Of a DNA stretch of 64,000 nt, positions 12,182 to 31,376 are shown piece after piece. Under the pieces are notes generated by a model. The model did not search any database and was not told the DNA's origin. It was given only the letters and a program-made list of their open reading frames with translations. Positions within the stretch are counted from its first letter, which is position 1, and every line of letters begins with the position of its first letter. Source of the DNA: Candidatus Woesearchaeota archaeon (GTDB lineage: Archaea > Nanobdellota > Nanobdellia > Woesearchaeales > GW2011-AR9); the NCBI GenBank assembly GCA_041665465.1, contig JBAYIU010000001.1, positions 1,081,733 to 1,145,732 of the forward strand, written 5' to 3'. A program made the position numbers and the translations under genes.

Positions 12182-12190
12182 CTATTATTA

Positions 12191-12230
12191 TCTTAAAACT
12201 TATTTTCTATTTAAATATTGCGTTTTAAGA
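12191..12230. promoter_or_regulatory. 9-bp inverted repeat (TCTTAAAAC ... GTTTTAAGA) bracketing a TATA-like element, between the Lrp gene and the radical SAM operon
   Basis: Arms at 12191-12199 and 12222-12230 with a 22-nt AT-rich spacer (tattttctatttaaatattgc). Confidence 0.45.
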
Positions 12231-12278
12231 TTAAAAAACAGTTAGAAGTTTCTTCATTGCCTTTTAATTTATGTCTCT

Positions 12279-13361
12279 GTGATCTTGATGGAAGATAAAC
12301 TAAATACCTCTTTGGTGGCGGGATGGTCGTTTACTAAACGTTGTAATTTACGTTGTATTCACTGCTATGGTTCTTCTGGATGTAGAGCACCAGACGAATT
12401 AACTTTAGAAGAAGCCTTAAATGTGGCTGATAAACTTAAGACTTCTTGTGTAGAAGCAGTAAATTTTGGTGGAGGGGAATGTTGTCTTAGGGAAGATTTT
12501 ATTCCTTTATGTGAACGCTTACACTCTTTGGGTATAAAGATATCTTATACCACCAATGGAACTACCCTAAACAGAATCAGATCCCATCTATATTTATTTA
12601 ACGATGTGGGGGTTAGCTTAGATTTTCCGGATGCAGAAAGGCACGATTATTTTCGAGGAGGAAAAGGCATCTTTGCTAAAGCAGTGTCATCGTTACAAGA
12701 ATTAGTTGAAAGGGGGGTTGATACGGAGATAGTTACTTGTTTAACCAAGATGAATTGCTCTGAGAAAGATCTTTCTGATATGTATCAATTAGCCAAAGAG
12801 GTAGGAGTAGATTATTGGAGATTAAATCGTTTCAGAGCTAATGGTAGAGGGAAAGAGAATCAGAGTACACTTTCACTAACTCCAGAAGACCTCAGGAAAG
12901 CTTATACTTTTCTTTCTCAGTATGTGGATAATTCAGTTTCTGTTCCTGAACCAATCTATCGGGCTGCTTTTGGGGGTAAGTATACTTTTCCTGGAGATCC
13001 TTCAGGATATACTGCTTTTAGAATTCAACCTAATGGAGAAGTAAGTCCTTCAGTGTTCTTGACTGAAAGCGGAGGTAACATCAAGTATAATTCTCTCTCC
13101 GAGATTCTCGGTTCTCCTATCTTTAGATCAATCCGAGAAAGAAATCCGCAAGGAAAGTGTCAATCCTGTTCTGCTTACTCTCACTGTAAAGGAGGAGATG
13201 CAGGAGCTTCTTACTTAGAATATGGACATTTCAATGGTCCTGATCCTCTTTGTTGGCTTAGTGATAATGACATTAGGGGAATTGTTCAGCAGGAAATAAG
13301 TGAGACTTGGAACGTTCATGAGCGTTACCTTTGCACTCTTTATGTTCCTGTAAGAAAATAA
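12279..13361 (+). CDS. Radical SAM protein with a Cys-rich C-terminal auxiliary-cluster (SPASM/twitch-like) region
   Basis: CNLRCIHC (CxxxCxxC) motif, the GGGEC SAM-binding motif, and C-terminal GKCQSCSAYSHCKGGDAG...DPLCW. Confidence 0.75.
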   Translation: MILMEDKLNTSLVAGWSFTKRCNLRCIHCYGSSGCRAPDELTLEEALNVADKLKTSCVEAVNFGGGECCLREDFIPLCERLHSLGIKISYTTNGTTLNRIRSHLYLFNDVGVSLDFPDAERHDYFRGGKGIFAKAVSSLQELVERGVDTEIVTCLTKMNCSEKDLSDMYQLAKEVGVDYWRLNRFRANGRGKENQSTLSLTPEDLRKAYTFLSQYVDNSVSVPEPIYRAAFGGKYTFPGDPSGYTAFRIQPNGEVSPSVFLTESGGNIKYNSLSEILGSPIFRSIRERNPQGKCQSCSAYSHCKGGDAGASYLEYGHFNGPDPLCWLSDNDIRGIVQQEISETWNVHERYLCTLYVPVRK

Positions 13362-13374
13362 TGGAGGTATAACT

Positions 13375-14373
13375 ATGGTCGAACATCAAAAATTGCCGAA
13401 ACTAGACTTGAACATTACTAATCGATGTAATCTACGTTGTAAACATTGTGCTTTCGATTCTGGAGTAGAACAAATGTCAGAAATGAGTTTAGAAAAGATC
13501 TTGGAGGTCTTGCACCAAACCAGAGAATTAGGTGGATCTAAAGTGGATATTACTGGAGGAGAACCAACTCTACGAGATGATTACCTGAAGATTATTAAAG
13601 GTGCTAAAGAGATGGGGTATCAAGTAGAATTAGTCACTAACTCTCTGCGGTTAGATCATTCTACTTTAAAGACACTTCATTCATTAGATCTAGACAGTTT
13701 AGCGGTTAGCTTAGATGGATATACTTGGCAAACGCATGGTTTAATTCGTAATACCTCCTCAGAAGAGTTTGAGAAAGTAGTTAGAAATATTTCTGATGCA
13801 GTTAATTTGGGAATAAAAACCAAGATTAACACTTTAGCTTGTCAAGAAAATATGGAAGAGATTCCTCGGATTATTCAACTGGGAGAAGAGAAAGGAGTGA
13901 AAGAGGTAGGATTATATTATTTCACTCCCGTGGGAAGAGGAGCTCACCAGAATTTGCATTCTGTGGAACCTCTTACTTGGTTAAGATTTGTCCGAGAGAG
14001 ACTGGATCGAGAGTATACTCTTAAAGTTTCTTTAGAGATACCTTTGATTGAGAAAGAATTATACTCCCCTAAAATGGGGTGTATTTGGGATGTTGATCCT
14101 TTCCATCTTCAGATCTTACCCGAAGGAAAAACTTATCCTTGCGCCATCATGGCGTCTTATCATCTCCCTATTGGTAATTTGTATCATCAGAACATTAGTG
14201 AAATCTGGAAAGATGAATCTGTCTGGAGCAGGTATCATTCTCAGTTAGAAGGACACTTTAATAGGAACAAGGGGGGTTGTGTAGCTTTCCGAGACTTCGA
14301 TCTAAAAGATTATCCAGGATATTCTTTTGTTTGTCCATTAAGAAAATATTCTCCGCAAGAGGTGAGAAGATGA
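13375..14373 (+). CDS. Radical SAM protein, second of the tandem pair, with a C-terminal Cys-rich region
   Basis: CNLRCKHC, GGEPTLR, C-terminal YPCAIMASY...GGCVAF...FVCP. Good RBS-like GGAGG upstream. Confidence 0.75.
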   Translation: MVEHQKLPKLDLNITNRCNLRCKHCAFDSGVEQMSEMSLEKILEVLHQTRELGGSKVDITGGEPTLRDDYLKIIKGAKEMGYQVELVTNSLRLDHSTLKTLHSLDLDSLAVSLDGYTWQTHGLIRNTSSEEFEKVVRNISDAVNLGIKTKINTLACQENMEEIPRIIQLGEEKGVKEVGLYYFTPVGRGAHQNLHSVEPLTWLRFVRERLDREYTLKVSLEIPLIEKELYSPKMGCIWDVDPFHLQILPEGKTYPCAIMASYHLPIGNLYHQNISEIWKDESVWSRYHSQLEGHFNRNKGGCVAFRDFDLKDYPGYSFVCPLRKYSPQEVRR

Positions 14374-14945
14374 GCAACTTATTTGTGGTCGGTGAGGGAG
14401 TGGATAAGGGAGGAAAAACCAGCGTCTTAAAGTACGTGTGCAACCAGCTAACCAAAGAAGGGGCTGATGCTGTTTATCGCAAAGGGATTAAAGGGGACGG
14501 TTACTTGGCTAAACTTTCTTCCGTTTATCCTTCTACACCTACTTTCTTGTTGGAGCAGATGGAGCAGAATATTAACTTATATCTCCGAACAGGGATAGTT
14601 TTACAAGATCGGTGGTATTATTCGGTTGTTTCTTATCCTGAAAATGGAGTTGGTTCTGATATAATCAGTAAGGTGGTCACTCCTTTTCTAAGAGAGCCGG
14701 ACTTACTTCTTTATTTCACTTGTTCTTTGGAGGAGAGATTAAGAAGATTAGAACAAGAACCAACCCGAGAACATCTGGATCTAATTAATCATCCAGAGAA
14801 GATTGAAGAATGGGAAAACAAGTTGTTAGAACATTATGTTCAATTCTCTGGAACTAAATATTTAATTGATACGACCTACAGAAGGGTGGAAGAAAGCGGA
14901 GAAGAGGTGTTGGATTTGATTAAACTTGGATTAAGTCGCTCCTAA
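14370..14945 (+). CDS. Thymidylate-kinase-like P-loop nucleotide kinase, translationally coupled to the radical SAM gene
   Basis: The ATG overlaps the upstream TGA as ATGA. P-loop VVGEGVDKGGKTS; DRWYYSVVSY matches the Tmk DRY..S..AYQ region; lid-like PDLLLYF...RLRRL. Confidence 0.6.
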   Translation: MSNLFVVGEGVDKGGKTSVLKYVCNQLTKEGADAVYRKGIKGDGYLAKLSSVYPSTPTFLLEQMEQNINLYLRTGIVLQDRWYYSVVSYPENGVGSDIISKVVTPFLREPDLLLYFTCSLEERLRRLEQEPTREHLDLINHPEKIEEWENKLLEHYVQFSGTKYLIDTTYRRVEESGEEVLDLIKLGLSRS

Positions 14946-18736: not shown

Positions 18737-20575
18737 ATGGGATTAGCTGATAGATTCATAGAAGCAAGAGAAGCTTTTGAACTGGCTTATGATAGAGTTG
18801 CTAATGACCATTCTCGCTCATTACTGGATCCTCTGGTTCTTCCAGAGGTAGAACAATACTTGCCTGTACTTGCCGAAGCGGTTCGTGAAGCAAGTCTTCT
18901 TTCTCCACTTGAGATAGGAGAACTCATTTTTCATCCTAAAAAGGCTCAACGAGGTATGGGTACTGCAGAATGTCTTCTATTTGATTATCAGCTTGCTGCT
19001 GAAGGGTTTGGTTTGGCCAATGTAGAAAGAACATTGGGAGAATTTGCAGAATTAAGTGACTTCATGAGTTTAGTTATTGCGAAATTATCTACTTCTCCTG
19101 ATCTTCCTGCTGTTGAGAGAATATCTCTTATTGGTGGTTCAAAAAGAATAAAGTTGGTTCAAGGGACATCTGAAGTCAAAGGTGACAGTGCTGCTCAGAC
19201 CTATCTTGCTCGGGAAAGAGAAGCTCACTGTTTAGTCTTTCAAGGAGATGCCCCTCAACAAGTTCACAATGAAGTTACTGATTTACTTCTAGCTAGATTT
19301 GGTCCTCATAGTCCTTACTTTAAGAAAACAGGTAGATACATCCGGCCATATCATGTTGATGCTAAATCTGGTTTGGCAACCATTGCTCAACTTGATTCTG
19401 TTCCTGAGGTTCATAATATTGGTAATTTATCTGTAGCCCCTGCCTACTTTAGGGTAGGGGGAATGTTTATTGATTATCAAGATCTAGATGTGGTGATTGG
19501 TGAGCTTAAATCCTTTGGGTATAGTGTTAGTCCAGGTAGTTCTAATTCCTCTCTTACTGATCGTTTATTATCCGCAGGAGTACCTGAACCATTGGTTGAA
19601 CCATTAATCCAAAGTGTTAATGCCCAGATCGATCGACTAGATCATATCGTTACGGATACTATGACTGGGATTATGGGTCATGGTTGCGTAGGAAGATACG
19701 TTTCTTCAGAAGGAACGTATTGGTTTAAGATAGATACTAATTATTCTGCAGCGTATAAGTCTTCTCAGATTCCTGCGTTAATTCATGCTCGAGCAGAAGC
19801 AGGTAGTGAATTAGCCCAAGCCCTAGCTAGAAGAATTCCTTGCACTTTATCTGGTCTTCCGATTCAAGTAGGAGATTATCATGTTACTTTTTCTCGAGAT
19901 GCGAACGAAATGATGGTTCAGCCAGATTTAGTAGAAAGATCTATCCTGTCTGTAGAATTAGGGAGAGGAATAGGTCCCGAGATGCTTCAAAGGATTTATA
20001 CTACTGCATTATATCATGAAGTTTCTACTGATCTTAGTAAGGATAATCCTGATCCTTTGTTAAGCTCGGAAATTTTCCCCACCAATTTAGATCGGGAACA
20101 ATTGATAGCTCGTTTTAATGGAAGATTTACAGATTTTTCTTCTTTATTCAACAGAACTATTGATGGGGGCTATGAAGAAGGACGTGCTAGGTTATTAGAA
20201 CATCAACTTTCTGGGTCAATTCAAGGTATCTATGACAACAAACCTGAGAACTATGTGGGGGCTTGTTGTGTTGATCTTGGAATATCCAAACAAGGGGACG
20301 AAGTAGATGATTTAGCTAGATTGATGTTAGGAAAGGAAGAATTTGTGAAAAATCCCATTCTCTTAAATAATTATGTTGGTGCTTATATCAGAATTCGTCA
20401 AGGAATTCAGAAGAAATATCGTGGAGAAGCAACGTATCATCCTAGTGAAGAATTGTCTGAATTAGTTAGTCTACAATTACAATATGGTACTTGGAGAATG
20501 ATGGGATGGAGTGTAGTAAGGGGAGATGAAGAAGGATTAACTAAATATTTGCGATGTGCTCAAGAGTTTGTCTGA
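18737..20575 (+). CDS. Large hypothetical protein (612 aa)
   Basis: Long ORF with consistent coding potential and elevated GC (about 42%). No motif recognised. Confidence 0.5.
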   Translation: MGLADRFIEAREAFELAYDRVANDHSRSLLDPLVLPEVEQYLPVLAEAVREASLLSPLEIGELIFHPKKAQRGMGTAECLLFDYQLAAEGFGLANVERTLGEFAELSDFMSLVIAKLSTSPDLPAVERISLIGGSKRIKLVQGTSEVKGDSAAQTYLAREREAHCLVFQGDAPQQVHNEVTDLLLARFGPHSPYFKKTGRYIRPYHVDAKSGLATIAQLDSVPEVHNIGNLSVAPAYFRVGGMFIDYQDLDVVIGELKSFGYSVSPGSSNSSLTDRLLSAGVPEPLVEPLIQSVNAQIDRLDHIVTDTMTGIMGHGCVGRYVSSEGTYWFKIDTNYSAAYKSSQIPALIHARAEAGSELAQALARRIPCTLSGLPIQVGDYHVTFSRDANEMMVQPDLVERSILSVELGRGIGPEMLQRIYTTALYHEVSTDLSKDNPDPLLSSEIFPTNLDREQLIARFNGRFTDFSSLFNRTIDGGYEEGRARLLEHQLSGSIQGIYDNKPENYVGACCVDLGISKQGDEVDDLARLMLGKEEFVKNPILLNNYVGAYIRIRQGIQKKYRGEATYHPSEELSELVSLQLQYGTWRMMGWSVVRGDEEGLTKYLRCAQEFV

Positions 20576-21489
20576 GAAAAGTTTATTGCAAATAATGGCA
20601 CAGTAGTAAGATAAATCGTTCGAGCTAACTCTCCACAATAATATAAAATTAGGTTTTCTTCCCCTTTTGATTTTTTAAGAAGAAGAAATATTTCCCCATA
20701 AAGGAGATGTTTATTATTGTCATTTACTTGTTCTATTATCTTAAGATCTTTCTTTGAAAAACCTTCATATAGTAGTTCAAAACTGGCTTTAATCTCGGTA
20801 AATAATTTCAAGGTGCTGTTAGAAAAAACTGGCTTATTCTTTCCTTGCATTACTTCGTAAAGATGCAATAAACTATGTTGTGTTAGCAACAATCGTGTGT
20901 ATAATTCCCAGTAGGAGTTTATTCTCTCTTCTACAAATCTTCTTTTGGAGATATTTCTATTGCAAAAGTTAGAGTAACGATCAACATTTTTACTATTTTG
21001 TATTAAATGAGACAAATGAGAAAAATCCTTGTTCTTAAAATCGTTTTCTAATTGCTCAAAAGAGTTCTTAATAATTAGAAAGATTCGGCGCAGAAGTACT
21101 TCTTGCTTCTCCTCACTTGGTTCAGTTACGTTTTCCAAGATTAAGTAATTGGGGCTTTCTTCCACAATTTCAAACCCTAACAATCTTGCTTCTACTGTGT
21201 TCTTAATCAAATTTTTCTGTTTAGGGATGTTAAAAAATACTTTTATTCGGTCAAAGCCAGTACGATAAAGGACATTCAGATTACTGCGAATAATCTGTTC
21301 ACTTTCAGTAGATATCTTTAGGACAGAACTCTTCTTCTCACCTTTTGATTCGGTGCTGATGATAACTTTATTTTCTATTTCTTCTATATCTACTTCTTTT
21401 CCTGCCTTCAATCCGTTGAGTTTGGTCCATTTAGCGGGAAGAGTTAAAGTTAAAGCGTTATCCCCCTGCTTGATCAGTTTTCTACGCAT
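20560..21489 (-). CDS. AbrB-N/PhoU-like regulator (paralog 2 of 4)
   Basis: MRRKLIKQGDNALTLTLPAKWTKLNGLKAGKEVDIE at the N-terminus. Aligns with the other three paralogs. Confidence 0.65.
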   Translation of the reverse strand: MRRKLIKQGDNALTLTLPAKWTKLNGLKAGKEVDIEEIENKVIISTESKGEKKSSVLKISTESEQIIRSNLNVLYRTGFDRIKVFFNIPKQKNLIKNTVEARLLGFEIVEESPNYLILENVTEPSEEKQEVLLRRIFLIIKNSFEQLENDFKNKDFSHLSHLIQNSKNVDRYSNFCNRNISKRRFVEERINSYWELYTRLLLTQHSLLHLYEVMQGKNKPVFSNSTLKLFTEIKASFELLYEGFSKKDLKIIEQVNDNNKHLLYGEIFLLLKKSKGEENLILYYCGELARTIYLTTVPLFAINFSQTNS

Positions 21490-21528
21490 ATGTATTGAAT
21501 GTGGGGGTTTATTTTTAAACTTTTCTTA

Positions 21529-21575
21529 AACTTATATTACTTATATTTAAAATATAAGTTAAATATAAGTAGTTA
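21529..21575. promoter_or_regulatory. Composite palindromic operator-like element in a divergent promoter region
   Basis: aACTTATATTACTTATATTTaaAATATAAGTtAAATATAAGTag. Two direct copies of ACTTATATT face two copies of the reverse complement AATATAAGT. Confidence 0.45.
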
Positions 21576-21625
21576 CCGGTGTTGTCACTTATTAATAACA
21601 ATGAAGAAGATGAGGTAAAACAAAA

Positions 21626-21892
21626 ATGGTCACGGAAAGTTTAGATTTTGAACGAAATATTGGGTCTTTAGAGAGAGCCCTAAAATTACTCACAAAAGCG
21701 TACCTCTTAAGTGGAGCGATTGTAAGAGAAGAACAAGATCAAAGTAGAATTATTGCCTATACCAATGCGGCTTTATATTCTCTTGGTGTTGAACCCCGGG
21801 TTGATTTTTCAGAATGTCCTGATAGGTATACACCAAAAAATATTGCCGAACTAAGAAAGAAGACTCGGGAAGCATACCCTCACTTCTGCTAA
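21626..21892 (+). CDS. Hypothetical protein, first gene of a five-gene operon
   Basis: 88-aa ORF. Genes 21626-24918 are tightly spaced or overlapping (stop/start overlaps at 22653/22656, 23147/23150, 24103/24106). Confidence 0.35.
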   Translation: MVTESLDFERNIGSLERALKLLTKAYLLSGAIVREEQDQSRIIAYTNAALYSLGVEPRVDFSECPDRYTPKNIAELRKKTREAYPHFC

Positions 21893-21894
21893 AT

Positions 21895-22656
21895 ATGTTG
21901 AAAAATGGGGTTAATCTTGTCTGGAGAATAAAAATGAATCATCAATCAAATTTAGGATTAACTGCTTTGGTTGCTGGAGCTCTGGCTTTAATGAGTGCTT
22001 GTAATTCTGGAGTATCTAAAGAGGAAGAAAATAGATTATTACAACTAGAGAGACAAAAGCAAGTAGAAATACAAGAAGAGATGGCTAAACCTCTCTGTCC
22101 GGAAATACCTCTTTACTTAGCAAGAGAAAGCTCTCGATATGGGGCATTAGCAAAAGAATTTATCTTGACGTGTAATGATGTTGGTGGCCAGGGGGATTAT
22201 GGTCTTTTTGTTGAAGTAAAGAAAAATCTTTACAAAAATATGGAACAACAGAGGAAAGCTACCATTAAAGATTTGGTCTCTAAAGGAGTTATGTCTGAGA
22301 ATGGTACACTAAAATGTAGGTTTCCACAACCCGATTTGAATCAGTTAAGATCTGCCTATGATTCACTTTTTGAGAAAGAAGTAACTCCTATTTGGAGATG
22401 TCATACCAATAAAGGAAATATTCCAATGTGTGATTACATTGGATGTGCTGTTTTTACTGACAAGTATGGGGAAGAAAACTTTCAAAGAGGGAAATTTTGT
22501 AGTCCCACTGAAGCTGTAAGGGTGGAAAAAGATCAAATTGAAAGATATCTAATGCAAGAGAAAGGGGCTTGTCAACATGTGGATTATAATTATTTTGATC
22601 CGATCAGTGGGCAATGGTTCAATACTAAAACTGGAGTGATGAGGGACAAAAAATGA
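21895..22656 (+). CDS. Putative lipoprotein, Cys-rich
   Basis: Signal peptide ending in the lipobox-like LMSAC (likely start at the Met of MNHQSNLG at 21934). Several conserved Cys. Confidence 0.45.
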   Translation: MLKNGVNLVWRIKMNHQSNLGLTALVAGALALMSACNSGVSKEEENRLLQLERQKQVEIQEEMAKPLCPEIPLYLARESSRYGALAKEFILTCNDVGGQGDYGLFVEVKKNLYKNMEQQRKATIKDLVSKGVMSENGTLKCRFPQPDLNQLRSAYDSLFEKEVTPIWRCHTNKGNIPMCDYIGCAVFTDKYGEENFQRGKFCSPTEAVRVEKDQIERYLMQEKGACQHVDYNYFDPISGQWFNTKTGVMRDKK

Positions 22657-23150
22657 AACTATCTTATCTTATCTTAGCTTTGGGTTTAGCTACAGCTGGT
22701 GCTTGTACCTCTGAACAAGACAGAGCTAATCAAACTCGTTATAAAGCAGAAATTATTGCTTTATATGATCAACTAGAAGAGAAAGTTGCTAAAGCTCAGA
22801 ATCAATTAGCAATTGGCTCTATCGATCCTCTAAACAATGAGTATAAAGTGATTGAATGTTACAGAGTTTGGAGAGATTATCACTTTTCTACTAAGGAGGC
22901 CGGAGAACACAATTGGAAATATTGTTTATCTATCACTGAAGATGGAAAATATGATTGGGGGGCTTGTATTGATGACGCGGTGAATGAAATCTCTGAATCT
23001 AATCTTGATCCAAATCTATTGAAGGTTGGGGTGAAAAGTTCCTTTGAGAAACATTGTCGAGAACAAATAACCCTAGCTGATGAATTCATCTATTGTGCTG
23101 ATCATCTTAAACCTGAACCAGGTGTTGAAATTGAGGTAAATGAAATATGA
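22653..23150 (+). CDS. Putative lipoprotein
   Basis: MKLSYLILALGLATAGAC, a signal peptide with lipobox. Confidence 0.5.
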   Translation: MKLSYLILALGLATAGACTSEQDRANQTRYKAEIIALYDQLEEKVAKAQNQLAIGSIDPLNNEYKVIECYRVWRDYHFSTKEAGEHNWKYCLSITEDGKYDWGACIDDAVNEISESNLDPNLLKVGVKSSFEKHCREQITLADEFIYCADHLKPEPGVEIEVNEI

Positions 23151-24103
23151 TAAATGATAATTTAGAGATAATTGTAGAAAGAAGAGAAATTCGTCCAGAA
23201 AGAGATATTGTTGTCAAACAACTTGGGGTAGATTTCATAGATCAAGGAATCAATCGCGGATTTTTCGGATGGATAAGAGCTCGGATTGATCACTATTTAG
23301 ATTCAGAGAGTCGAACCTTAGCAGTTAGGAAGGAAGAATTCTTCCGAGATTATGCTACTACCTACACTACTTTATTTGGAAATGGGAATGATTGGGATTC
23401 TCTTCGAAGTATGGATCAAACTAAGATTGATGATACTCCTCAAGCAAGTTCCTTTTCTGGTTTAAGTCAGAAACATCGTGATGCGATTATTATTGATAAG
23501 ATAGTTAACGTCCTGGAAACCACCGAAGATCAGTTTGTGGCTGGATTATTCCGTGGATATTTGAGTCATGACTTAATGTGTTCAGATGCAGTTCATCAAT
23601 TGATTATGGGGTACGAACCGGGACAAGAATTCTCTTGGAGATCTAAACCTCGTCGTGAGATTACTCTTCATCAAGAAGGGGAATATTCCGAAAAGGTCAT
23701 CTGCAGATCAGAAGAAACGAAACGATTAACTCGAGATTATCCTATTGAAGATACTTTCGGAGAAGCTAGAGAGTATTTTGCTACTTGTAACAGAGCCATG
23801 GAACTCGCTCGACATTATCTCCGTTCTCCTGCTCAATGTACTGAAGCGGAAATGGGCGTTCTTGCTCCTTTCGCGGCTATCGCTGCTCGTGATGGAGAAT
23901 GGCGCGGTATTGAGTTAGAATGGAATGGCACAATTCTCGATTTCCAACAACATTTAGATGGAAATATGTTGGGAAGATTAGGTGAGGGAATCAAGAGATT
24001 ACAAGAAGCAAATATCGTTGACCTTCAGTATCATCAGGACAAAGTATATCTCTTGCCCACTGAAGGATTCATCCAATTGACTAGAGAGAGGTTGGGAAGA
24101 TAA
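23147..24103 (+). CDS. Hypothetical protein (318 aa)
   Basis: GC-rich (about 48-50%) ORF with no recognised motif. Translationally coupled on both sides. Confidence 0.5.
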   Translation: MINDNLEIIVERREIRPERDIVVKQLGVDFIDQGINRGFFGWIRARIDHYLDSESRTLAVRKEEFFRDYATTYTTLFGNGNDWDSLRSMDQTKIDDTPQASSFSGLSQKHRDAIIIDKIVNVLETTEDQFVAGLFRGYLSHDLMCSDAVHQLIMGYEPGQEFSWRSKPRREITLHQEGEYSEKVICRSEETKRLTRDYPIEDTFGEAREYFATCNRAMELARHYLRSPAQCTEAEMGVLAPFAAIAARDGEWRGIELEWNGTILDFQQHLDGNMLGRLGEGIKRLQEANIVDLQYHQDKVYLLPTEGFIQLTRERLGR

Positions 24104-24105
24104 GA

Positions 24106-24918
24106 ATGAAAAATCCAATAAATCTACTAAGGGGTTTAACTCAATCAGAAGAATTAAAATGGCAGGAAGCTTATGGTTTAATCTTAGCACGGGCGGAGGA
24201 GAAGACCAACCTTAAAGCATTAAGAACTGGAATTTATCGAGATCTTCAAGCACAAAAAATTCCTCCCAATGTCACAATGTCAACAAGAAGACATCCGGTA
24301 GACTATCTCTTACAGGCGCGTCTAGTCTTAGGCTCATGGCCGGATGCATTTTTATCCTATCTTTCTCCTAGTACTTGGACCTCTAGTGGTGGATCTTTTA
24401 AACTGGCAGAAGAGAGACTGGGTTACGATTTAGTAAACATTCTGCTGGAAAAAGAGAAAAAGCAAGGTCAATCCTCTATATTAGAAGTGGGTGCGGGATA
24501 TGCCGGATTTAAATCACAACCTGCTCAAGGGATGTGTAAATTATCTCACGTAGCGAATGACAAAATGGGCAATACCATTAATGCTTATTTCACTAACCTT
24601 TCTAGATGGCATGAACAACTCCCGAATGGAGTAGAAGAATTTCCCGGTGTTACTGCTAGTACCTTAGATTGTCTAAGCGGAAGAATATCTCCCTTAGATA
24701 TTATTTATTCTCAATGGGGAGCTTTTTATGATCCTCTAATTGATCGATTCATTCCTAGTGCGAGTGGTTTATTGAAATCAGATGGTTTGTTAATTTTTAA
24801 TCATTCTACTTTCTATGAGGGAGAGATCTTAAATGAAGCCAAAAAAAATCTTCTTTCCTTAGAAAAGAAAGTAGAGCTTCATCCTGGGAATAATATCTAT
24901 GCTTTTCGTAAAGCCTAA
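24106..24918 (+). CDS. Putative class I SAM-dependent methyltransferase
   Basis: ILEVGAGYAGF resembles motif I (E/D-x-G-x-G-x-G) in a Rossmann-like context. Weak evidence. Confidence 0.4.
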   Translation: MKNPINLLRGLTQSEELKWQEAYGLILARAEEKTNLKALRTGIYRDLQAQKIPPNVTMSTRRHPVDYLLQARLVLGSWPDAFLSYLSPSTWTSSGGSFKLAEERLGYDLVNILLEKEKKQGQSSILEVGAGYAGFKSQPAQGMCKLSHVANDKMGNTINAYFTNLSRWHEQLPNGVEEFPGVTASTLDCLSGRISPLDIIYSQWGAFYDPLIDRFIPSASGLLKSDGLLIFNHSTFYEGEILNEAKKNLLSLEKKVELHPGNNIYAFRKA

Positions 24919-24939
24919 ATAAACTTAATTTGTTACTTT

Positions 24940-25860
24940 TTATTTTTCTTCTTCTAGCATCTTTAATTGTAATAAAGAATGATTAAACATGGCAATAGTT
25001 CTAGCCACTTCAAATAGATAACACATCGCTAGTGGATTTAGCCCTTGTAATTTGTTTATTCGTTGATTAGTTATCTTTTCCATCTCATTTGCAAGGATGC
25101 CCGTTCTTTCTAATTCTGCAGGATTGTTTGCTTTAAAATAAGCTAGATACATCTGATCAAACATTTTGGTAAATTCTTCCATAAACGGAAGAATCTTCTG
25201 TTTTTGGTTTTTGGGGAGGTTAATGGTTGCTTGAACTAAACTAAACAGTTCTCTTTGGATTACGTAACAATCGCGATACTCCTGCCATTTAAATGGACTA
25301 TTCTTTAAGGGGTAATTAGAATAATTACTTCTAAGAATTGAATCACACTGAACCATACTCTTATTCAGGTTTGCAATACTTTTGAGGTTTTTAGAATCTT
25401 TTTTAAGCAGTTCTATCACTTCCAAAAATGTTTCTTTAACCAGATGAAAAGATCTTTTTTCTACAGTATTTATCTCGCTAGGGAAAGGGATTAAATTAGC
25501 TAGAATACAACAATTATTCTTTGTTTCTCTGATCTCATACCCATAAACATAATTATCTACCACTTCTCGAATATTTTTGAGGAATTGATCCTTTTCTTTC
25601 TCTTTAAAGAACAAGGTAAAACGGTCGCAACCCAAACGAATCAGAGAAAACATAATTCCTCGGATATTTCCAATATCTGAGTATTCTAGAGTTACACTGC
25701 GTTCTTTAGCTGGTCTTTTGTAATCTTCTGCTTGAATAATCAGCTGATTTTGTTCTTCTTCAATCTTAACTTCTTTACTCCCCAGCTTATTGCGGTCTAC
25801 CCAGTATTTAGGTACTGTCAGCAAATAAGAACCTTTATTGAAGACTAATTTTCTATGCAT
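24940..25860 (-). CDS. AbrB-N/PhoU-like regulator (paralog 3 of 4)
   Basis: MHRKLVFNKGSYLLTVPKYWVDRNKLGSKEVKIEEE at the N-terminus. Same architecture as the other paralogs. Confidence 0.65.
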   Translation of the reverse strand: MHRKLVFNKGSYLLTVPKYWVDRNKLGSKEVKIEEEQNQLIIQAEDYKRPAKERSVTLEYSDIGNIRGIMFSLIRLGCDRFTLFFKEKEKDQFLKNIREVVDNYVYGYEIRETKNNCCILANLIPFPSEINTVEKRSFHLVKETFLEVIELLKKDSKNLKSIANLNKSMVQCDSILRSNYSNYPLKNSPFKWQEYRDCYVIQRELFSLVQATINLPKNQKQKILPFMEEFTKMFDQMYLAYFKANNPAELERTGILANEMEKITNQRINKLQGLNPLAMCYLFEVARTIAMFNHSLLQLKMLEEEK

Positions 25861-25883
25861 TCTTTCTTTAATCTTAAGTTTCT

Positions 25884-25917
25884 ATATAAACCTTCCCTAG
25901 GGAAGATAGGGGAGAAG
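25884..25917 (+). promoter_or_regulatory. TATA-like element (TATATAAA) followed by the motif CCCTAGGGAAGATAGGGGAGAAG, which recurs at 27755-27777
   Basis: A near-identical motif, CCCTAGGGAAACTAGGGGGGAG, lies upstream of the 27850 gene. Both sit 50-100 nt before a + strand start. Confidence 0.45.
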
Positions 25918-25947
25918 TCTATAACAATTTTATTGTTTTAATCTCTC

Positions 25948-26754
25948 TTGGTGGTAGTGGGGGTTTTAAAAATGGCGTGGTTTATGAGACATAAGATACC
26001 TTATTTGGGTAAAGGAGATATACAACAGCAATATGATCATGAGAACAACCAAGTCTCTAATACTTTGTGTTATGGGGGAGTTTTTCTTAATCTTACTGGG
26101 GAAGAAAAGAATCGGGAAGAAGCAAGATGTTTTATCGGATTAGATGGTTTTTGGTTTTATGGGCACAAAGCTATAACTGCCTATCCTACTATTGATGCTG
26201 GGATAATGGTGGTTAAATATCGTGCTCTTGAAGAGGTTTCTCCTGACCAAGTAAATCATTTCTTAAAAAGAGAGTTCACTAATTGTGATGGTCCGGAGCG
26301 TGATGTTGGTTTAGAGATGGATATCTTTAAAGATCAAAGACTAGTCGTTAAACCAAAGGAAATGGCTCGTTATCATGATGAACTTAGAGAATGGCTCGAG
26401 GTATTGAATACTCATTATGCTCGACCTCATGCAGTTATGGTGGTTATGGCTATGAAACAGGAACTTCGTTCCTTGCCGGTGTTGGCTTTGGGTAATCGGT
26501 TGAATTATTCTGGACAAGAACGTGAAAAGAGAGGTGAACATGGAGCAAACCTATTCCCTCGGCCCACAGACATTCCTCTTCGAGATCGAGAGTTTGCTAA
26601 AGAATATCTTAAAGAATGCACTCCCGAAAACTATGAAGTGATTCAAGCAGCAAAAGCACATGGAATTAAAGAAGTGCGGCCGGTTCTAGACGAACTTGCT
26701 CGAGCTAAAGAGAAATTTGTGGAATCTTGGAGTTTGGACGGAAGGTTGTGGTAA
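25948..26754 (+). CDS. Hypothetical protein (268 aa)
   Basis: ORF with elevated GC. The true start may be the internal MAWFMRHK. No motif recognised. Confidence 0.45.
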   Translation: MVVVGVLKMAWFMRHKIPYLGKGDIQQQYDHENNQVSNTLCYGGVFLNLTGEEKNREEARCFIGLDGFWFYGHKAITAYPTIDAGIMVVKYRALEEVSPDQVNHFLKREFTNCDGPERDVGLEMDIFKDQRLVVKPKEMARYHDELREWLEVLNTHYARPHAVMVVMAMKQELRSLPVLALGNRLNYSGQEREKRGEHGANLFPRPTDIPLRDREFAKEYLKECTPENYEVIQAAKAHGIKEVRPVLDELARAKEKFVESWSLDGRLW

Positions 26755-26761
26755 AATGGCA

Positions 26762-27211
26762 TTAAGTTATCACAAATTCTGTTTTTATTTGTTTTAAAGA
26801 AGTGATGTCCTTAATGTGGGCCACTCCTTTACGGGCAACGACTCGTTTTAAGAATTCATAATATTGATCGACGTCTTTAGTTCTTACTTTAACGATAAGT
26901 TCACAATCTCCCATACAAACATCTACACTTTCCACTTCGGGGTGTTTAGCTATCTCTCTGCCAATCCTCTCTGGATTATCATATTCTTGTTCTGAGAGGT
27001 GAATCAGGACAAAACAGCAAAAACCTTCCTCTATTTTCTTGTAGTCAAAAATGGCTTTATATGTTCTTATAATCCCCTCTCGTTCCAATTTGTGAATATT
27101 ATAATGAATGGTGGTGGTGGGTTCTTTGATTTTTTTAGCAATCCTAGCCAACTGTGGAGTACAATAGTCCTCTTTAAGGAGAGGAATTAGCTTTGCTTGG
27201 ATATCTTTCAT
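26762..27211 (-). CDS. Lrp/AsnC-family transcriptional regulator (single-unit, 149 aa)
   Basis: HTH_AsnC (TPQLARIAKKIKEPTTTIHYNIHKLEREGII) plus a RAM domain. Confidence 0.7.
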   Translation of the reverse strand: MKDIQAKLIPLLKEDYCTPQLARIAKKIKEPTTTIHYNIHKLEREGIIRTYKAIFDYKKIEEGFCCFVLIHLSEQEYDNPERIGREIAKHPEVESVDVCMGDCELIVKVRTKDVDQYYEFLKRVVARKGVAHIKDITSLKQIKTEFVIT

Positions 27212-27213
27212 GA

Positions 27214-27273
27214 GATTATTGAATAATATTCAATTTTTTATAAAACTTTCGCATGATTATTGAATATTATTCC
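27214..27273. promoter_or_regulatory. Two direct copies of a near-palindromic box (GATTATTGAATA(A)TATT) upstream of the Lrp gene; candidate Lrp autoregulatory operator
   Basis: 27214-27234 and 27255-27273, each containing ATTGAATA/TATTCAAT symmetry. The TATA-like element TTTTTTATAAAAC lies between them. Confidence 0.4.
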
Positions 27274-27334
27274 GATATACTTATAATGATGTTACCCCTC
27301 CTAAAGGGTATCAAAAACAAAAGGGGGGAATAAA

Positions 27335-27685
27335 ATGACTGATTTAAGAGGAAAAGTAAGGGAAGTAGTAATAGGAAAAAGTGGAGGCGAATTAGTCGCA
27401 AGATTAAATGATGGCCAAGAAGTGGTCCTACTTAGAGCACCACATGGACATTATTTTGGTAGTGTACTTAGTGAGCCACAATTATGTGGGGATATCGTGA
27501 GATACACTAGAACTGATCACATTAGTGCTAGGGGAGATTATGGGAGTATTAGTAGAGATGAGGTAATGTCCTGTACTGTTGACCTGCGCGGAACAGCCCT
27601 TATTGAAAATGAAGGCGATAATCATAAATATGATTCTGTCAACCGTTCATGTCCTCGTACTCCTACACGATCATTTAGTTGGTAA
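27335..27685 (+). CDS. Hypothetical protein (116 aa)
   Basis: Strong RBS-like AAAAGGGGGGAATAAAATG. GC about 45%. Confidence 0.4.
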   Translation: MTDLRGKVREVVIGKSGGELVARLNDGQEVVLLRAPHGHYFGSVLSEPQLCGDIVRYTRTDHISARGDYGSISRDEVMSCTVDLRGTALIENEGDNHKYDSVNRSCPRTPTRSFSW

Positions 27686-27849
27686 TTAAAGAATCGTTGG
27701 GGGTATAAGGTAATTTCCTTTATCTTACTTTATTTTCTCTCTGGAGGGAGTTATCCCTAGGGAAACTAGGGGGGAGTTTAAAATAAACTTCTCTCTATTT
27801 TAGCTTAAATAGTTGGTTTTGGTGTTTTATAAATGTGGAGTGATCAATA

Positions 27850-28443
27850 ATGTCAATTAGAAAATATTTTGTGTCGATTGCCGCTGCGACGGTATTATTG
27901 GGGGGGTTAGCTTGCACTAAAATTGGATCTACTGCGGATACTTTGCTAGGGATGGCTTTGGATAATCCTAACTATCTTAGAATGGAACAGAGAGATACGG
28001 GAGTTGCTAACACTGCTTTCAAGGATAAAACTACCGGAAATTTAGTTTACACTTTGTTAAGAGATGGGTTTGAGGGAACAGTAACAGAATATTTTGATCT
28101 TAATCATAATGGGCAAGTTGATGGTGAAGATTATTTTGCTCGAGTTAAGGTACTTAGGGGCATAGATTGCGAAGGAAGTGATTCTGGTTGTCTAGACGAA
28201 GAATGTACTTTATGCTCTATGGTTGACTGTTTTACTCATTATCCTCAAACCGTCTCAACTAAGCCGCTTAAGGCTGTAACTACTGCTGCTGATCCTCTCA
28301 CTTTGTATCCTGCAAGCCAAGTTGACTTAATCTCTAGATATAAGGTTCAATCTCCTCGAGAAATTGCTCTGTGTGTGATTAATGGTGCAAGAGAATTAAA
28401 CCAAACTTATTCTGTAGTGGTTGATCCAAATCTTTTACCTTAG
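27850..28443 (+). CDS. Putative lipoprotein with an EF-hand-like Ca-binding loop
   Basis: Signal peptide with the lipobox LGGLAC. DLNHNGQVDGED matches the DxNxNGxxDxxE Ca-binding loop. Multiple Cys. Confidence 0.5.
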   Translation: MSIRKYFVSIAAATVLLGGLACTKIGSTADTLLGMALDNPNYLRMEQRDTGVANTAFKDKTTGNLVYTLLRDGFEGTVTEYFDLNHNGQVDGEDYFARVKVLRGIDCEGSDSGCLDEECTLCSMVDCFTHYPQTVSTKPLKAVTTAADPLTLYPASQVDLISRYKVQSPREIALCVINGARELNQTYSVVVDPNLLP

Positions 28444-28451
28444 GAGGAAAA

Positions 28452-29531
28452 ATGAAACGAATCACTTTAGCTAGTTTATTGTTGGGAGCTGCTCTTAGTT
28501 TGGGCGGATGTCATGAAGATACTCCGCAAGAGCAGATTGCAGATAAATTATCTCGTTCTCCAAAAAGTTTTCTGTGTGCGGTAGAGGATCACGTTAATTC
28601 TACTGCTCCTGCATTGTCCGTGGCTTCAGTATTGCAAACCGTTCCGGTGCTTAGTCCCGTAGTTAAGAATGATCTTCCCAAGACTATTCCTTTTACTGCT
28701 AATAGTGCTCCTAGAAAACATCGCGCTAACCAAGTTAATGGTAACATATTAACTGTTTACTTTACTACTGATCATTCTAGCTTTAACTCAAACGATACTG
28801 CTGATTTGGAAACCTATCTTCAAAGTTTACCTAATGGAACCCATTTGTTGGTAGAAGGTTATGCTGATCGAAGAGGTACTGATGAACATAACGCCTTGCT
28901 TAGTCAGCAAAGAGCTCAAGCTGTATCTGATTACGCTAAGAGATTTAATCCTACTTTGGAAACTGAACTTTATTCTTTTGGTGAGGGTCATCCGGCAGTG
29001 GAAGGTAAAGGGTTCAAGACTTATCAAGCTAATCGTCGAGTTAGAATTATCCCTCAAAAAAGTGAAGGAGTGATCACTACTGGACTAAGTACTTTAAAAC
29101 CATCTGATTATTATCTATTAGACCGAACCGGCTCAATGAAGGATATTCAATGGAATAGAGTTTCTAAGTGGAATGAAGTTCAATCTTATCAATTTCCAAA
29201 AGGGGCTAGTCTTTACACTTTTACTACTAATAATGTAACTAAAGGATGCACTGGTGAAGATTTAAATCAACTTACTCCTGATGGAGAGACTCCTTTGTTT
29301 GTGTCTTTATACTCTTTGTTAGATGAGATGAAAGAAGGTAGATCTGTAACTGTGCTAACTGATGGGATTAACAATGTAGGAGATGTTAGTGATAAGGACA
29401 TTATAGAAAGAGCTAGAGCAAAAAAGATTACTCTTTCCTTTCTAGCTCTAGTCCCTTGTGATAAGGACAGATTAACTTATCTGGCGAAAGAAACCGGCGG
29501 AGATACTTACTTGCCGATTGAGAAAGAATAA
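28452..29531 (+). CDS. Lipoprotein with an OmpA-like (peptidoglycan-associated) domain and a von Willebrand factor A domain
   Basis: Lipobox LSLGGC. VEGYADRRGTDEHNALLSQQRAQAV is the OmpA-C signature. YYLLDRTGSM (MIDAS DxSGS) and VLTDGINN mark a vWA domain. Confidence 0.65.
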   Translation: MKRITLASLLLGAALSLGGCHEDTPQEQIADKLSRSPKSFLCAVEDHVNSTAPALSVASVLQTVPVLSPVVKNDLPKTIPFTANSAPRKHRANQVNGNILTVYFTTDHSSFNSNDTADLETYLQSLPNGTHLLVEGYADRRGTDEHNALLSQQRAQAVSDYAKRFNPTLETELYSFGEGHPAVEGKGFKTYQANRRVRIIPQKSEGVITTGLSTLKPSDYYLLDRTGSMKDIQWNRVSKWNEVQSYQFPKGASLYTFTTNNVTKGCTGEDLNQLTPDGETPLFVSLYSLLDEMKEGRSVTVLTDGINNVGDVSDKDIIERARAKKITLSFLALVPCDKDRLTYLAKETGGDTYLPIEKE

Positions 29532-29544
29532 TGGAGAATGAAAA

Positions 29545-29925
29545 ATGATTGGATACATTAAACAAACTGTTTTGGCTTTAACGGCCTTTGGATTTATGAT
29601 TGGATCTGCTTATGCTGAGCAAAGAGATTTTTCTCCTCAGAAACAGTTAGCTAGAGTAGAAGCTCAGATTAAAACCGGAAAAGGAAACTTAGAAGAATTA
29701 AGAGAATTAAGATCTTATTTTAGAGATAGTGCTTCTTGTGATGCTCTGCAACAGAAATACTGGAAGAACTGTCAAGAACCAGAGCAGAGAGCTGCTTCTG
29801 AGAAACTTTGCGCTAGCTTAGATGCAGAAATTGATTCATTATGGGAATCTTGGTTAGAAACTCCTGATTTTAATCAACGATTAGATAATTATGGGTTTTG
29901 CGGACAGGATTATGTTGGTGACTAG
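29545..29925 (+). CDS. Secreted hypothetical protein
   Basis: N-terminal signal peptide, with a likely AYA-EQ cleavage site. 126 aa. Confidence 0.45.
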   Translation: MIGYIKQTVLALTAFGFMIGSAYAEQRDFSPQKQLARVEAQIKTGKGNLEELRELRSYFRDSASCDALQQKYWKNCQEPEQRAASEKLCASLDAEIDSLWESWLETPDFNQRLDNYGFCGQDYVGD

Positions 29926-29942
29926 TTTTTAAAAATTAAATC

Positions 29943-31376
29943 ATGACTATTAAAGAAAAGTTTGAAGCGATAAGGGATTATCGCAGCAGTAAAAAAGTCC
30001 AGATTGATCGTTTCTTAGATCCAGCTTTGTTTCTCACTTTTACTAATGCTGCTAGTTTGTATGGGTTAGATACGGCTTTAAACTGGGTGGCAGAACATTC
30101 AGATAAGCATGAAGGATTGGCTATGCTGGGAACTTATGCTGTTCTTGGTACAGGAATATATGAATTAAATAAGCATGTTCTTATCCCGGTAGCGAAGAGA
30201 ATAAAGCAATATCATGAGATCCGTGCTTTAAGAGGAAAAGATGCTACTGTTCTTAGCTTTGGTAAATCTGGAGCTTCACTAGCAGCATTAGCTACTTTGT
30301 ACGTTGTAGCTGGATTTAATCTTACCCTTAATGATTTCTACTGGGATGGAGATAGAGTAATTGATGCTTTTGCTCGTCATAAAAAAGCAGAACAAACCAT
30401 TGAAGAGGCTCAAGCTATTGATGTTACTCCTTTATCCTTAGAAGAAAGAGTTACTCTTGTGAATGAAACCAATATTTTAGAGAATAAAACATCTCTTGCT
30501 TCCTCTTCTGAGATTAAAGTAGAAAGTCCAACCGAGATTGGTAATTCTAACAAATATTCTACTAAAGGACGTTATTTAAGAACTCATCGCTGGGATAAAA
30601 TAAACCGAGCGGTAGAACAAAAATATGGGATTGAAGAAGGTCTTCTCTCCGGATTACAGATGAGAGAGAGTTATGGTAATCCGTTAGAACTTAATTCTGG
30701 AGATGATGGTGGAGCAGGATTGATGATGTTCCAACCCGGAACGGCCAAAGTATATGGTCTTAAAGTTTATGATGATGCTGGAGCTACGGGAAGAGATCGT
30801 AATCATGGAAGAAAACTTATCAAGTTAGTTAAAGATAATAATTATGATTATGAAGCTCTTGCTTCTATTGATGAAAGATTTGATGTACTTAAGAGTGCAG
30901 ATGCAGCAGGCAGATATCTTAGAGAGTTGTATGATAAATATGGTTCATGGGACAGCGCTTTATCTGCTTATAATCGAGGAACTCCGGCAACTAATCCTAA
31001 ATCTACTCGCCATGTTAAAACTACTCGAGAATATCAGCGATATTATCTTGAACATAATTCTGCAGGGGGAGAAAAGGTTGATGAAACCGTTTTGACTCGT
31101 CTTCGGCAAGATAGATTACCGGAATATCGATTCGTTAGAACAAATGAATTGGGACAAGCGGTTTATATGTACCGTGTTGAAGCTGGAGATAATGCCACAG
31201 TTATCGCTGAAACCTTTAATCGTTGGGATGGGAAACATGGAAGCAGATATCAAGACGTTGATTATACTCATATCGTTAATAGAGATAGAAAATATGTGGG
31301 ACACAGATTACATCCTGAGCAGTATGTTTACGTTTTAGCTGAACCTCTAGCTAAATCTAAACTTAAGAAGAAATAG
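29943..31376 (+). CDS. Membrane-anchored lytic transglycosylase (SLT domain) with a C-terminal LysM-like module
   Basis: Two N-terminal TM segments. QMRESYGNP...GGAGLMMFQPGTA...AYNRG is the SLT family signature with the catalytic Glu. The C-terminus YRVEAGDNATVIAETFN is LysM-like. Confidence 0.65.
   Translation: MTIKEKFEAIRDYRSSKKVQIDRFLDPALFLTFTNAASLYGLDTALNWVAEHSDKHEGLAMLGTYAVLGTGIYELNKHVLIPVAKRIKQYHEIRALRGKDATVLSFGKSGASLAALATLYVVAGFNLTLNDFYWDGDRVIDAFARHKKAEQTIEEAQAIDVTPLSLEERVTLVNETNILENKTSLASSSEIKVESPTEIGNSNKYSTKGRYLRTHRWDKINRAVEQKYGIEEGLLSGLQMRESYGNPLELNSGDDGGAGLMMFQPGTAKVYGLKVYDDAGATGRDRNHGRKLIKLVKDNNYDYEALASIDERFDVLKSADAAGRYLRELYDKYGSWDSALSAYNRGTPATNPKSTRHVKTTREYQRYYLEHNSAGGEKVDETVLTRLRQDRLPEYRFVRTNELGQAVYMYRVEAGDNATVIAETFNRWDGKHGSRYQDVDYTHIVNRDRKYVGHRLHPEQYVYVLAEPLAKSKLKKK

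Follow-up and report, generated by a model that had tools for sequence, protein, structure and literature searches.

Is the run of orphan genes and regulators beside the EF-1alpha/rps10 pair of a woesearchaeal chromosome a foreign island, or a native region that close relatives reshuffle among themselves? The locus lies in a 64,000-nucleotide (nt) stretch, here called the window, of a 1.56-Mb contig (JBAYIU010000001.1) from a Candidatus Woesearchaeota metagenome-assembled genome. Exact look-ups matched the window proteins to MFA6461858-870 (locus tags WCV90_0635x-0640x), and the region is framed by the EF-1alpha/rps10 pair, a Na+/H+ exchanger and a CCA-adding enzyme. An initial annotation had presented positions 18737-27685 as a GC-elevated, horizontally acquired mosaic of cargo genes and local regulators. 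We consider it reasonably probable that 18737-31376 is instead a chromosomal, compositionally native and recombining variable region of one genus-level Woesearchaeota lineage, made up of local regulator units and acting as a regulated cell-surface or bacterial-partner interaction locus. Readings of the block as a recent island, a provirus, a toxin-antitoxin or defense module, or a cluster for ribosomally synthesized and post-translationally modified peptides (RiPPs) were all ranked below this one.

The open reading frame (ORF) order across 18737-27685 is as first annotated: u612 (+), a 309-amino-acid (aa) regulator (-), ORFs of 88, 253, 165, 318 and 270 aa (+), a 306-aa regulator (-), a 256-268-aa ORF (+), a 149-aa Lrp/AsnC protein (-) and a 116-aa ORF (+), with three minus-strand regulators alternating with eight plus-strand ORFs. 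None of the eight plus-strand products (0/8) scored above a curated cut-off in Pfam, NCBIfam, PHROGs or PADLOC. No other part of the window is so rich in proteins that lack a family assignment, in agreement with the block's designation as the likeliest place for undescribed functions. The described arrangement in units of cargo and local regulator was also borne out, since each regulator is divergent from a plus-strand gene set and conserved operator-like elements lie in the spacers. In the model we favor, there would be three such units (reg309, reg306 and Lrp), each regulator facing its gene set across a short spacer with a conserved repeat or palindrome and controlling both itself and the neighboring genes through the spacer elements. 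The gene sets would be exchanged, lost and replaced among sister lineages by recombination, which would give the block a mosaic look without foreign base composition.

Base composition and signs of mobility

The elevated GC first read by eye (40-50% in coding sequence against ~35% for the backbone) did not survive calculation. GC content is 36.75% in the region versus 36.39% in the remainder of the window; of 551 windows of equal size, 136 match or exceed the region in GC. Per-gene GC in the region spans 0.33-0.405, a range that takes in EF-1alpha (0.389) and rps10 (0.394), and no gene of the region comes near 45-50%. In favor of a foreign island, the plus-strand genes have a mean GC of 0.385 versus 0.370 for the window's other genes (1.5 GC points; p = 0.04). 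This excess comes entirely from codon positions 1 and 2, which points to amino-acid composition as its source. GC at third codon positions (GC3) is below average, at 0.259 in the eight in-region plus-strand genes (p = 0.02) and 0.253 in the 12 through 31376 (p = 0.002), versus 0.301 elsewhere. Plus-strand genes fit the host's synonymous codon usage as well as other genes do (p = 0.75), and the tetranucleotide distance of the region ranks 14th of 111 windows, ~1 standard deviation over the mean. The composition once described as atypical is host-like within the window by all three measures: GC, tetranucleotides and codon usage.

High GC at codon positions 1 and 2 combined with low GC3 (0.22-0.30) is seen in the plus-strand genes of 18737-31376 and also at window genes 38460, 43444, 46299, 56121 and 57355. 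Low expression and the amino-acid bias of secreted proteins are possible causes of the low GC3 of the cargo genes.

Hallmarks of mobility are equally scarce. Domain searches found no integrase or transposase in the block, the 64-kb window holds no tRNA gene, and no flanking repeats of the block rose above chance. An Rfam search returned no match, and a sigma-70 promoter scan, which has no relevance for an archaeon, fell below shuffle expectation. One relative (L086) does have an IS630-type (DDE_3) transposase bordering the block on the left, and together with the many orphan genes and the SLT gene near the right boundary (SLT-type lysins occur in viruses and conjugative systems) this transposase would suit an integrated provirus or other mobile element. 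We find this reading hardly credible. The block encodes no integrase, capsid, terminase, ATPase or replication protein, its proteins have no phage-family match in PHROGs, IMG/VR scans with the u612 and u318 families retrieved no relatives, att-like repeats and tRNA are missing, and the block keeps the same chromosomal position in its sister lineages.

Distribution and mosaicism among relatives

A total of 80 Woesearchaeota/Nanoarchaeota loci were fetched around EF-1alpha and compared over a 10-kb neighborhood. Among ~85 Woesearchaeota loci, the block is carried by two sister lineages only: sister lineage 1, comprising GCA_964734485.1 and related contigs (L002/L004/L089; EF-1alpha 93-94%), and sister lineage 2, a JGI lineage (L085-L088). 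None of its genes was found within 10 kb of EF-1alpha in loci with EF-1alpha identity ≤83%. Such lineage-specific content, absent from ~78 other Woesearchaeota EF-1alpha loci, would be expected of an island that arrived recently with its cargo and its own regulators, as would the transposase of L086 and the bacterial type of the OmpA and SLT domains encoded downstream. However, the upstream exchanger gene is likewise missing from the loci with EF-1alpha identity ≤83%; synteny has decayed there on both sides, and the upstream flank is as poorly conserved as the block itself.

The framework of the block is kept in both sister lineages, and the window and the L085 and L089 lineages have one and the same right-hand boundary, at which the SLT and CCA-adding enzyme genes converge. 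Within this framework single genes come and go one by one. Among the fetched loci lip253 and u88 occur in the window only; a radical S-adenosylmethionine (SAM)/SPASM gene directly follows u318 in both sister lineages and is absent from the window; u270 is missing from L085, and the Lrp and OmpA genes are missing from L089. Extra genes are a peptidoglycan-deacetylase-like gene and a 175-aa gene after rps10 in L002, and three ORFs in L085. The deacetylase-like gene (L002 11786-13177, directly after rps10) encodes a 463-aa polysaccharide/peptidoglycan GlcNAc-deacetylase-like protein with a twin-arginine signal match.

The nearest relative also varies by gene, being L085 for u612, reg309, reg306, u256 and the CCA-adding enzyme, and L089 for sec126 and the SLT protein. 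In the case of u318, the sisters resemble each other (88%) more than either resembles the window (75-77%). In L002, the N-terminal half of the kinase gene matches that of L085 (44.5% identity), and the kinase domain belongs to another subfamily. Gene-wise presence and absence, combined with these discordant identities, argue for a mosaic formed through exchange among related lineages. The cargo proteins u318 and u270 (71-77% and 81-83% identical to their sister orthologs) are at least as conserved as the backbone CCA-adding enzyme (65%) and VTT protein (59%).

These comparisons bear out one part of the picture of an accessory block, its gene content, which is lineage-specific and variable among the nearest relatives; the framework is common to both sister lineages. 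With host-like composition, no tRNA, integrase or direct repeat, regulator paralogs spread across the window and a common framework, a recently acquired foreign island is quite unlikely, and recent transfer of the block is largely refuted; the horizontal acquisition proposed initially is thus unproven as a recent event. The block does resemble genomic islands and regions of genomic plasticity in its lineage-specific content, gene-wise variation among close relatives, many orphans and position beside a conserved housekeeping operon. It differs from them in showing no compositional deviation, integrase, tRNA or repeats, and in that its framework is passed on and recombined inside the lineage.

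Another variable spot lies at 11171-14945, a segment that is extra relative to L002 and falls between a 286-aa AbrB paralog and the Na+/H+ exchanger. It contains a double-Lrp/AsnC regulator (-), two radical SAM/SPASM genes and a dTMP-kinase-like gene. The best NCBIfam matches of the two radical SAM/SPASM genes, all under cut-off, are to mycofactocin/GeoRSP-type maturases. We considered these genes (12279-14373) as a relocated copy of the relatives' radical SAM gene rSAM287 and rejected this, with no BLAST similarity at E 1e-3 or better. Elsewhere in the window, tandem paralogous pairs of small genes occur at 45909-46295/46299-46685 and 55097-55558/55546-55986 (32% and 38% identity).

A rare kinase-like family

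The leftmost gene of the block, u612 (18737..20575, +), encodes 612 aa, of which the N-terminal ~270 residues precede an APH/choline-kinase-type, protein-kinase-like domain (residues ~275-612, ~nt 19560-20575). Word-index homology searches with u612 alone or with a 3-sequence alignment returned no match, not even the query, and the 90% cluster of u612 has a 46-aa fragment as its representative. When 1.84 billion representatives were scanned exhaustively with HMMER, 40 family proteins were recovered, 26 of them at E ≤1e-10, and nearly all of these 26 share the C-terminal ~340 residues. A metagenome contig scan with a 5-sequence kinase alignment returned only loci already in hand, and the u612-family loci are archaeal where flanks could be judged. 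Judged by these searches, u612 belongs to a rare kinase-like family, with 40 representatives among 1.84 billion and no entry in the family databases searched.

The family alignment contains the catalytic motif set of the APH/choline-kinase group: a Gly-rich loop (tMaGxxGGGVGR), a beta3 lysine (YvFKv), a catalytic loop with Asp and Asn (D-N-K-x-E-N) and a D-F/L-G motif. Across 27 sequences D500, D513 and G515 are invariant, G314, G316, V318, G319 and K331 are near-invariant, and N505 is present in u612. AlphaFold with the 27-sequence alignment succeeded for the C-domain alone, returning a bilobal kinase fold with a predicted local distance difference test (pLDDT) score mostly >90 at residues 330-612. 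A single-sequence AF2 prediction of u612 gave a pLDDT of 35 and was uninformative. u612 is predicted to be an active kinase.

Sequence resemblance to described kinases is remote. The Pfam APH model PF01636 left u612 unmatched even at E = 10, its relatives reaching only ~5e-4, and searching PDB sequences with the kinase-family profile yielded nothing beyond a non-significant match to the NEK2 catalytic loop (E 0.26). Identity to the APH/choline-kinase/MTR-kinase group (PF01636; 2olc, 4ocj, 4feu, YtaA 2q83, LxmK 9dk1, TvaE 8jsu) is 10-13%. Unlike that group, u612 adds a family-variable N-terminal region of ~270 residues, has a catalytic loop with a Lys as in eukaryotic protein kinases (DNKPEN, where APHs usually have HGDxxxxN), and has a fixed AbrB-regulator neighbor.

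The N-terminal regions vary among family members, and one contains leucine-rich repeats. Residues 131-265 of u612 (window ~19127-19531) recur as standalone proteins of ~135 aa and represent a separable, unnamed domain. One such homolog (L101 3773-4204) lies on a bacterial-looking contig beside HSP33, RidA and homogentisate dioxygenase genes. In three family members a 43-45-aa ORF lies immediately ahead of the kinase gene, and in a fourth a 36-aa ORF does; the window copy has none. These small ORFs overlap or abut the kinase-gene start, at L091 5867-6004 (an RHH_1 DNA-binding protein), L093 4862-4999, L095 2190-2300 and L100 4873-5004.

AbrB-type regulators and the kinase-regulator pair

The neighbor of u612, reg309 (20560..21489, -; 309 aa), combines an AbrB/SpoVT/MazE-type N-domain with a helical C-domain that is PhoU-like at best. 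Its swapped-hairpin N-domain matches PF04014 at 28.8 bits versus a cut-off of 24.7. Within the regulator family PF04014 matches 10 of 11 members, and PF01895 (PhoU) matches one of 11, weakly (E 2.6e-4). A PDB search with the family profile yielded no PhoU match and nothing interpretable, and one source labels the 309-aa protein a "phosphate uptake regulator". The second regulator, reg306 (24940..25860, -), is a reg309 paralog (29% identity) assigned to the AbrB class through this paralogy; it shares 94% identity with the L085 ortholog, and its gene is convergent to u270 on one side and divergent to u256 on the other. Of the regulator classes annotated initially, the Lrp assignment stood (PF01037); the two "PhoU-like" proteins are better described as AbrB-type paralogs, the PhoU label finding weak support.

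Four ~300-aa AbrB-N paralogs occur in the 64 kb, at 10303-11163 (+), 20560-21489 (-), 24940-25860 (-) and 52515-53432 (+), as do three Lrp/AsnC-type proteins (6976-7950, 11171-12181 and 26762-27211). Both are expanded native regulator families, and the four AbrB-type paralogs argue that the regulators were not imported with the cargo. Transcription factors with an AbrB/SpoVT N-domain and a PhoU-like domain form a populous archaeal family, for example in Pyrococcus furiosus (PMC6316755). The proteins described here resemble them in the N-terminal AbrB/MazE swapped-hairpin domain, the ~300-aa length, the several paralogs per genome and the divergent orientation to target genes. They differ in that a PhoU domain is found in only one of 11 members and that the reg309 subgroup is tied to a kinase-like gene and a four-repeat spacer core.

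The association of kinase and regulator extends beyond the genus. The reg309 gene converges on u612, and the 3′ ends of the two overlap by 16 nt. A convergent gene that overlaps (≤41 nt) or abuts the kinase 3′ end is present in every context with the downstream side on the contig, namely the window and eight others (L085, L002, L090, L091, L092, L093/94, L095/96 and L099). The neighbor was checked to be of reg309 type in the window, L085, L002, L090, L091, L093 and L095; L092 and L099 show a minus-strand ORF at this place that is truncated or unchecked. A complete regulator gene with its upstream spacer is available in the window, L085, L002, L091, L093 and L095. Where compared, the neighbor is of reg309 type and not another paralog, and kinase/regulator BLAST identities co-vary (50/68, 40/56, 39/64, 34/28, 29/32 and 24/32%).

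Kinase toxins such as HipA are known, the regulator N-domain matches the MazE antitoxin family, and the pair is conserved amid varying surroundings. The u612-reg309 pair could on this basis be a toxin-antitoxin or anti-virus module of a defense island, with a kinase toxin and an AbrB/MazE-type antitoxin. We judge this very improbable. The genes are convergent and do not form the antitoxin-first operon of a type II system, the "antitoxin" would be ~300 aa long and has three window paralogs without a kinase neighbor, and neither u612 nor reg309 matched a PADLOC model or a phage family.

Candidate operators

The divergent spacer between reg309 and the cargo genes holds a 65-nt operator/promoter-like core (21508..21572; inverted repeat I20) with a TATA-like TTTTTAAA and four repeat copies, two of them direct (ACTTATATT) and two inverted (ATATAAGT). 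AbrB-type proteins bind as tetramers, and four repeat copies would suit such binding. Identity of the core is 91-92% in L085/L002, 80% in L090 and 74% in L091, while the regulators alongside are 32-68% identical and the genes beyond the core differ among contexts. In the two most distant contexts (L093 and L095), the core falls to 59-66% identity and its repeats are no longer clear.

A second element lies between two TATA-like boxes in the reg306-u256 spacer, where the motif TCCCTAGGGAAGATAGGGGAGA with the palindromic core TCCCTAGGGA occupies 25894..25915 (+); this site is conserved in L085, L089 and L002. A second copy, TCCCTAGGGAA..TAGGGG, is found at 27754..27775 (+), upstream of the lip197/OmpA/SLT genes. 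The 19-22-nt motif matches twice in the window versus 0.11 expected, and both sister lineages retain it at the two orthologous positions (L085 7024-7042 and 10517-10535; L089 4951-4969 and, inverted, 5783-5801 (-)). The shared motif suggests that one regulator may tie the u256 and lipoprotein/OmpA/SLT units into a regulon. Finally, the Lrp-u116 divergent spacer, conserved in L085, contains two tandem 27-nt repeats (27205..27272; CTTTC..ATGATTATTGAATA.TATTC; repeat D7), a candidate Lrp operator. Assignment of the spacer elements as operators is predicted from sequence. The spacer repeats and the conservation of the motif support the existence of local regulator units.

Cargo genes

Downstream of the reg309 spacer, u88 (21626..21892, +) encodes an 88-aa protein with the poorest codon fit of the block and no homolog in relatives, whose corresponding slot holds unrelated small proteins. 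The window and L002 88-aa ORFs were considered as homologs and rejected, the alignment showing no kinship despite equal length. lip253 (21895..22656, +) and lip165 (22653..23150, +) encode Cys-rich putative lipoproteins with lipobox-like MSAC and AGAC, respectively. The former has nine Cys, no homolog in relatives and probably a start at 21934, giving 240 aa and matching the NCBI call; the latter is 67-71% identical in the L002/L089 lineage. u318 (23147..24103, +) is an orphan cytoplasmic protein with only three clusters among 5.8 G, and a 353-aa homolog is encoded in the distant L093 kinase-regulator locus (BLASTP E 1e-10, jackhmmer 7e-47). A search of u318 against the PDB gave nothing interpretable.

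The orphan u270 (24106..24918, +), 81-83% identical in L002/L089 and absent in L085, carries a weak class I SAM-methyltransferase-like signal from sub-threshold matches to TIGR02072 BioC (E 0.0025) and the PADLOC mad2 methyltransferase (E 0.004) and from a VGAGYAG motif seen by eye; it has no Pfam or PDB match. u256/260 (25972..26754, +) is another orphan, for which the listed 268-aa TTG start is probably too long. The Lrp/AsnC-family regulator (26762..27211, -; 149 aa) has an AsnC ligand-binding domain above cut-off (PF01037, 43.5 bits versus 25, E 2.9e-11), a weak helix-turn-helix match and NCBIfam LysM/LrpA-type matches, all under curated cut-offs. It is 90.5% identical in L085 and absent in L089. 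The last ORF, u116 (27335..27685, +), is an orphan with 65% identity over 75 aa in L085.

The likeness of u612 to LxmK and TvaE raises the idea of a RiPP-like cluster, in which u612 would phosphorylate a small precursor encoded by one of the 65-88-aa ORFs, with u318, a radical SAM/SPASM maturase and the methyltransferase-like u270 taking part and the products being exported. We regard this as unlikely. Precursor and maturase do not come together in the one locus, the radical SAM/SPASM gene being present in L085 and L002/L089 and absent in the window, and the candidate small ORFs are not conserved.

Right-hand genes and the cell envelope

The variable block continues to the right, beyond the piece first annotated, through 27850..31376 (+) and ends at the convergent CCA-adding enzyme gene. 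This continuation encodes lip197, a Pal/OmpA-like peptidoglycan-binding lipoprotein (OmpA359; 28452-29531, +; PF00691, TIGR02802 Pal E 7.5e-14), the secreted 126-aa Cys-containing protein sec126 and a membrane-anchored SLT lytic transglycosylase (29943-31376, +; PF01464). Its genes belong to the same compositional class as the in-region cargo, and its right boundary is that of L085 and L089. The SLT protein has N-terminal hydrophobic segments and a C-terminal stretch that looks LysM-like by eye (YRVEAGDNATVIAETFNRW...) and has no Pfam LysM match.

A simple pattern-and-hydropathy scan for a signal sequence and lipobox Cys marked lip253 (MSAC), lip165 (AGAC), lip197 (GLAC) and OmpA359 (LGGC) as predicted lipoproteins, and four of the five lipobox-like proteins of the window fall inside the block. 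The several secreted or lipobox-bearing proteins expected from the initial annotation thus come down to two with lipobox-like N-termini at 18737-27685; two more, together with a signal-peptide protein, lie just downstream.

The occurrence of GH23 lytic transglycosylases in Woesearchaeota has been interpreted as pointing to attacks on bacteria (PMC9723730; cited in PMC12352652). The locus described here is like those peptidoglycan-directed genes (PMC9723730) in encoding an SLT/GH23 domain protein, here accompanied by a Pal-like OmpA lipoprotein, and unlike them in that this protein belongs to the last unit of a regulated variable block. One sister lineage lacks the OmpA gene and another has a deacetylase-like gene instead. 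Secreted and lipoprotein cargo, together with a peptidoglycan-directed unit, point to a surface or bacterial-partner interaction locus, and we infer that the block serves such an interaction.

Discussion

The evidence presented above favors a native, recombining variable region whose units would work as follows. The leftmost unit has a conserved core that extends beyond the genus, comprising the u612 kinase-like protein, the convergent, 3′-overlapping AbrB-type regulator and the operator-like core. The last of these stands out in the five closest contexts and is faint in the two farthest. The kinase-like protein would phosphorylate a small molecule, peptide or protein, with the variable N-terminal region setting specificity. 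Its activity would be coupled to the AbrB regulator, which would switch the changeable gene set next to it, coding mostly for secreted proteins, lipoproteins and orphans, and the rightmost unit would add peptidoglycan-binding and peptidoglycan-cleaving proteins.

Several observations weigh against this account. Compositional comparisons used the 64-kb window as a stand-in for the genome, and an old, fully ameliorated transfer of the block may have taken place. u612 falls below every Pfam threshold, its Gly-loop (GIMGHGCVG) deviates from the family consensus, and its N-terminal 270 residues yielded no model, leaving that fold unassigned. The proposed functional coupling of kinase and regulator is drawn from conserved adjacency; the two genes are convergent and hence not co-transcribed. 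u88, lip253, lip165, u318, u256 and u116 offer no functional clue, and the surface or partner reading draws its support mainly from the right-hand genes, outside the piece first annotated.

We also put forward, tentatively and as a minority possibility, that the kinase, its convergent AbrB-type regulator and the repeat-bearing spacer core form an undescribed signaling cassette of Woesearchaeota-like genomes. The variable N-terminal region would act as sensor or selector of a ligand or target, maybe one derived from a partner, and the regulator would switch on the variable secreted, lipoprotein or peptide-modifying genes beside it, giving a portable sensor-switch with exchangeable effectors for interacting with bacteria.

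For the organism, the label of a GC-elevated island falls, and a compositional call made by eye is corrected. The block is an ordinary lineage-specific plasticity zone with local regulators, and the one new testable item in it is a rare APH-like kinase family tied to an AbrB-type regulator and, among the nearest contexts, to the putative operator of that regulator. Its peptidoglycan-binding and -cleaving proteins fit published ideas that some Woesearchaeota attack or attach to bacteria. It stands as a documented, compositionally native hotspot in a DPANN archaeon, where cassettes are shuffled among sister lineages beside the EF-1alpha/rps10 operon, and it offers an experimentally tractable handle on gene regulation in organisms whose signaling is hardly known: one kinase-like enzyme, one DNA-binding protein and one 65-nt DNA site.

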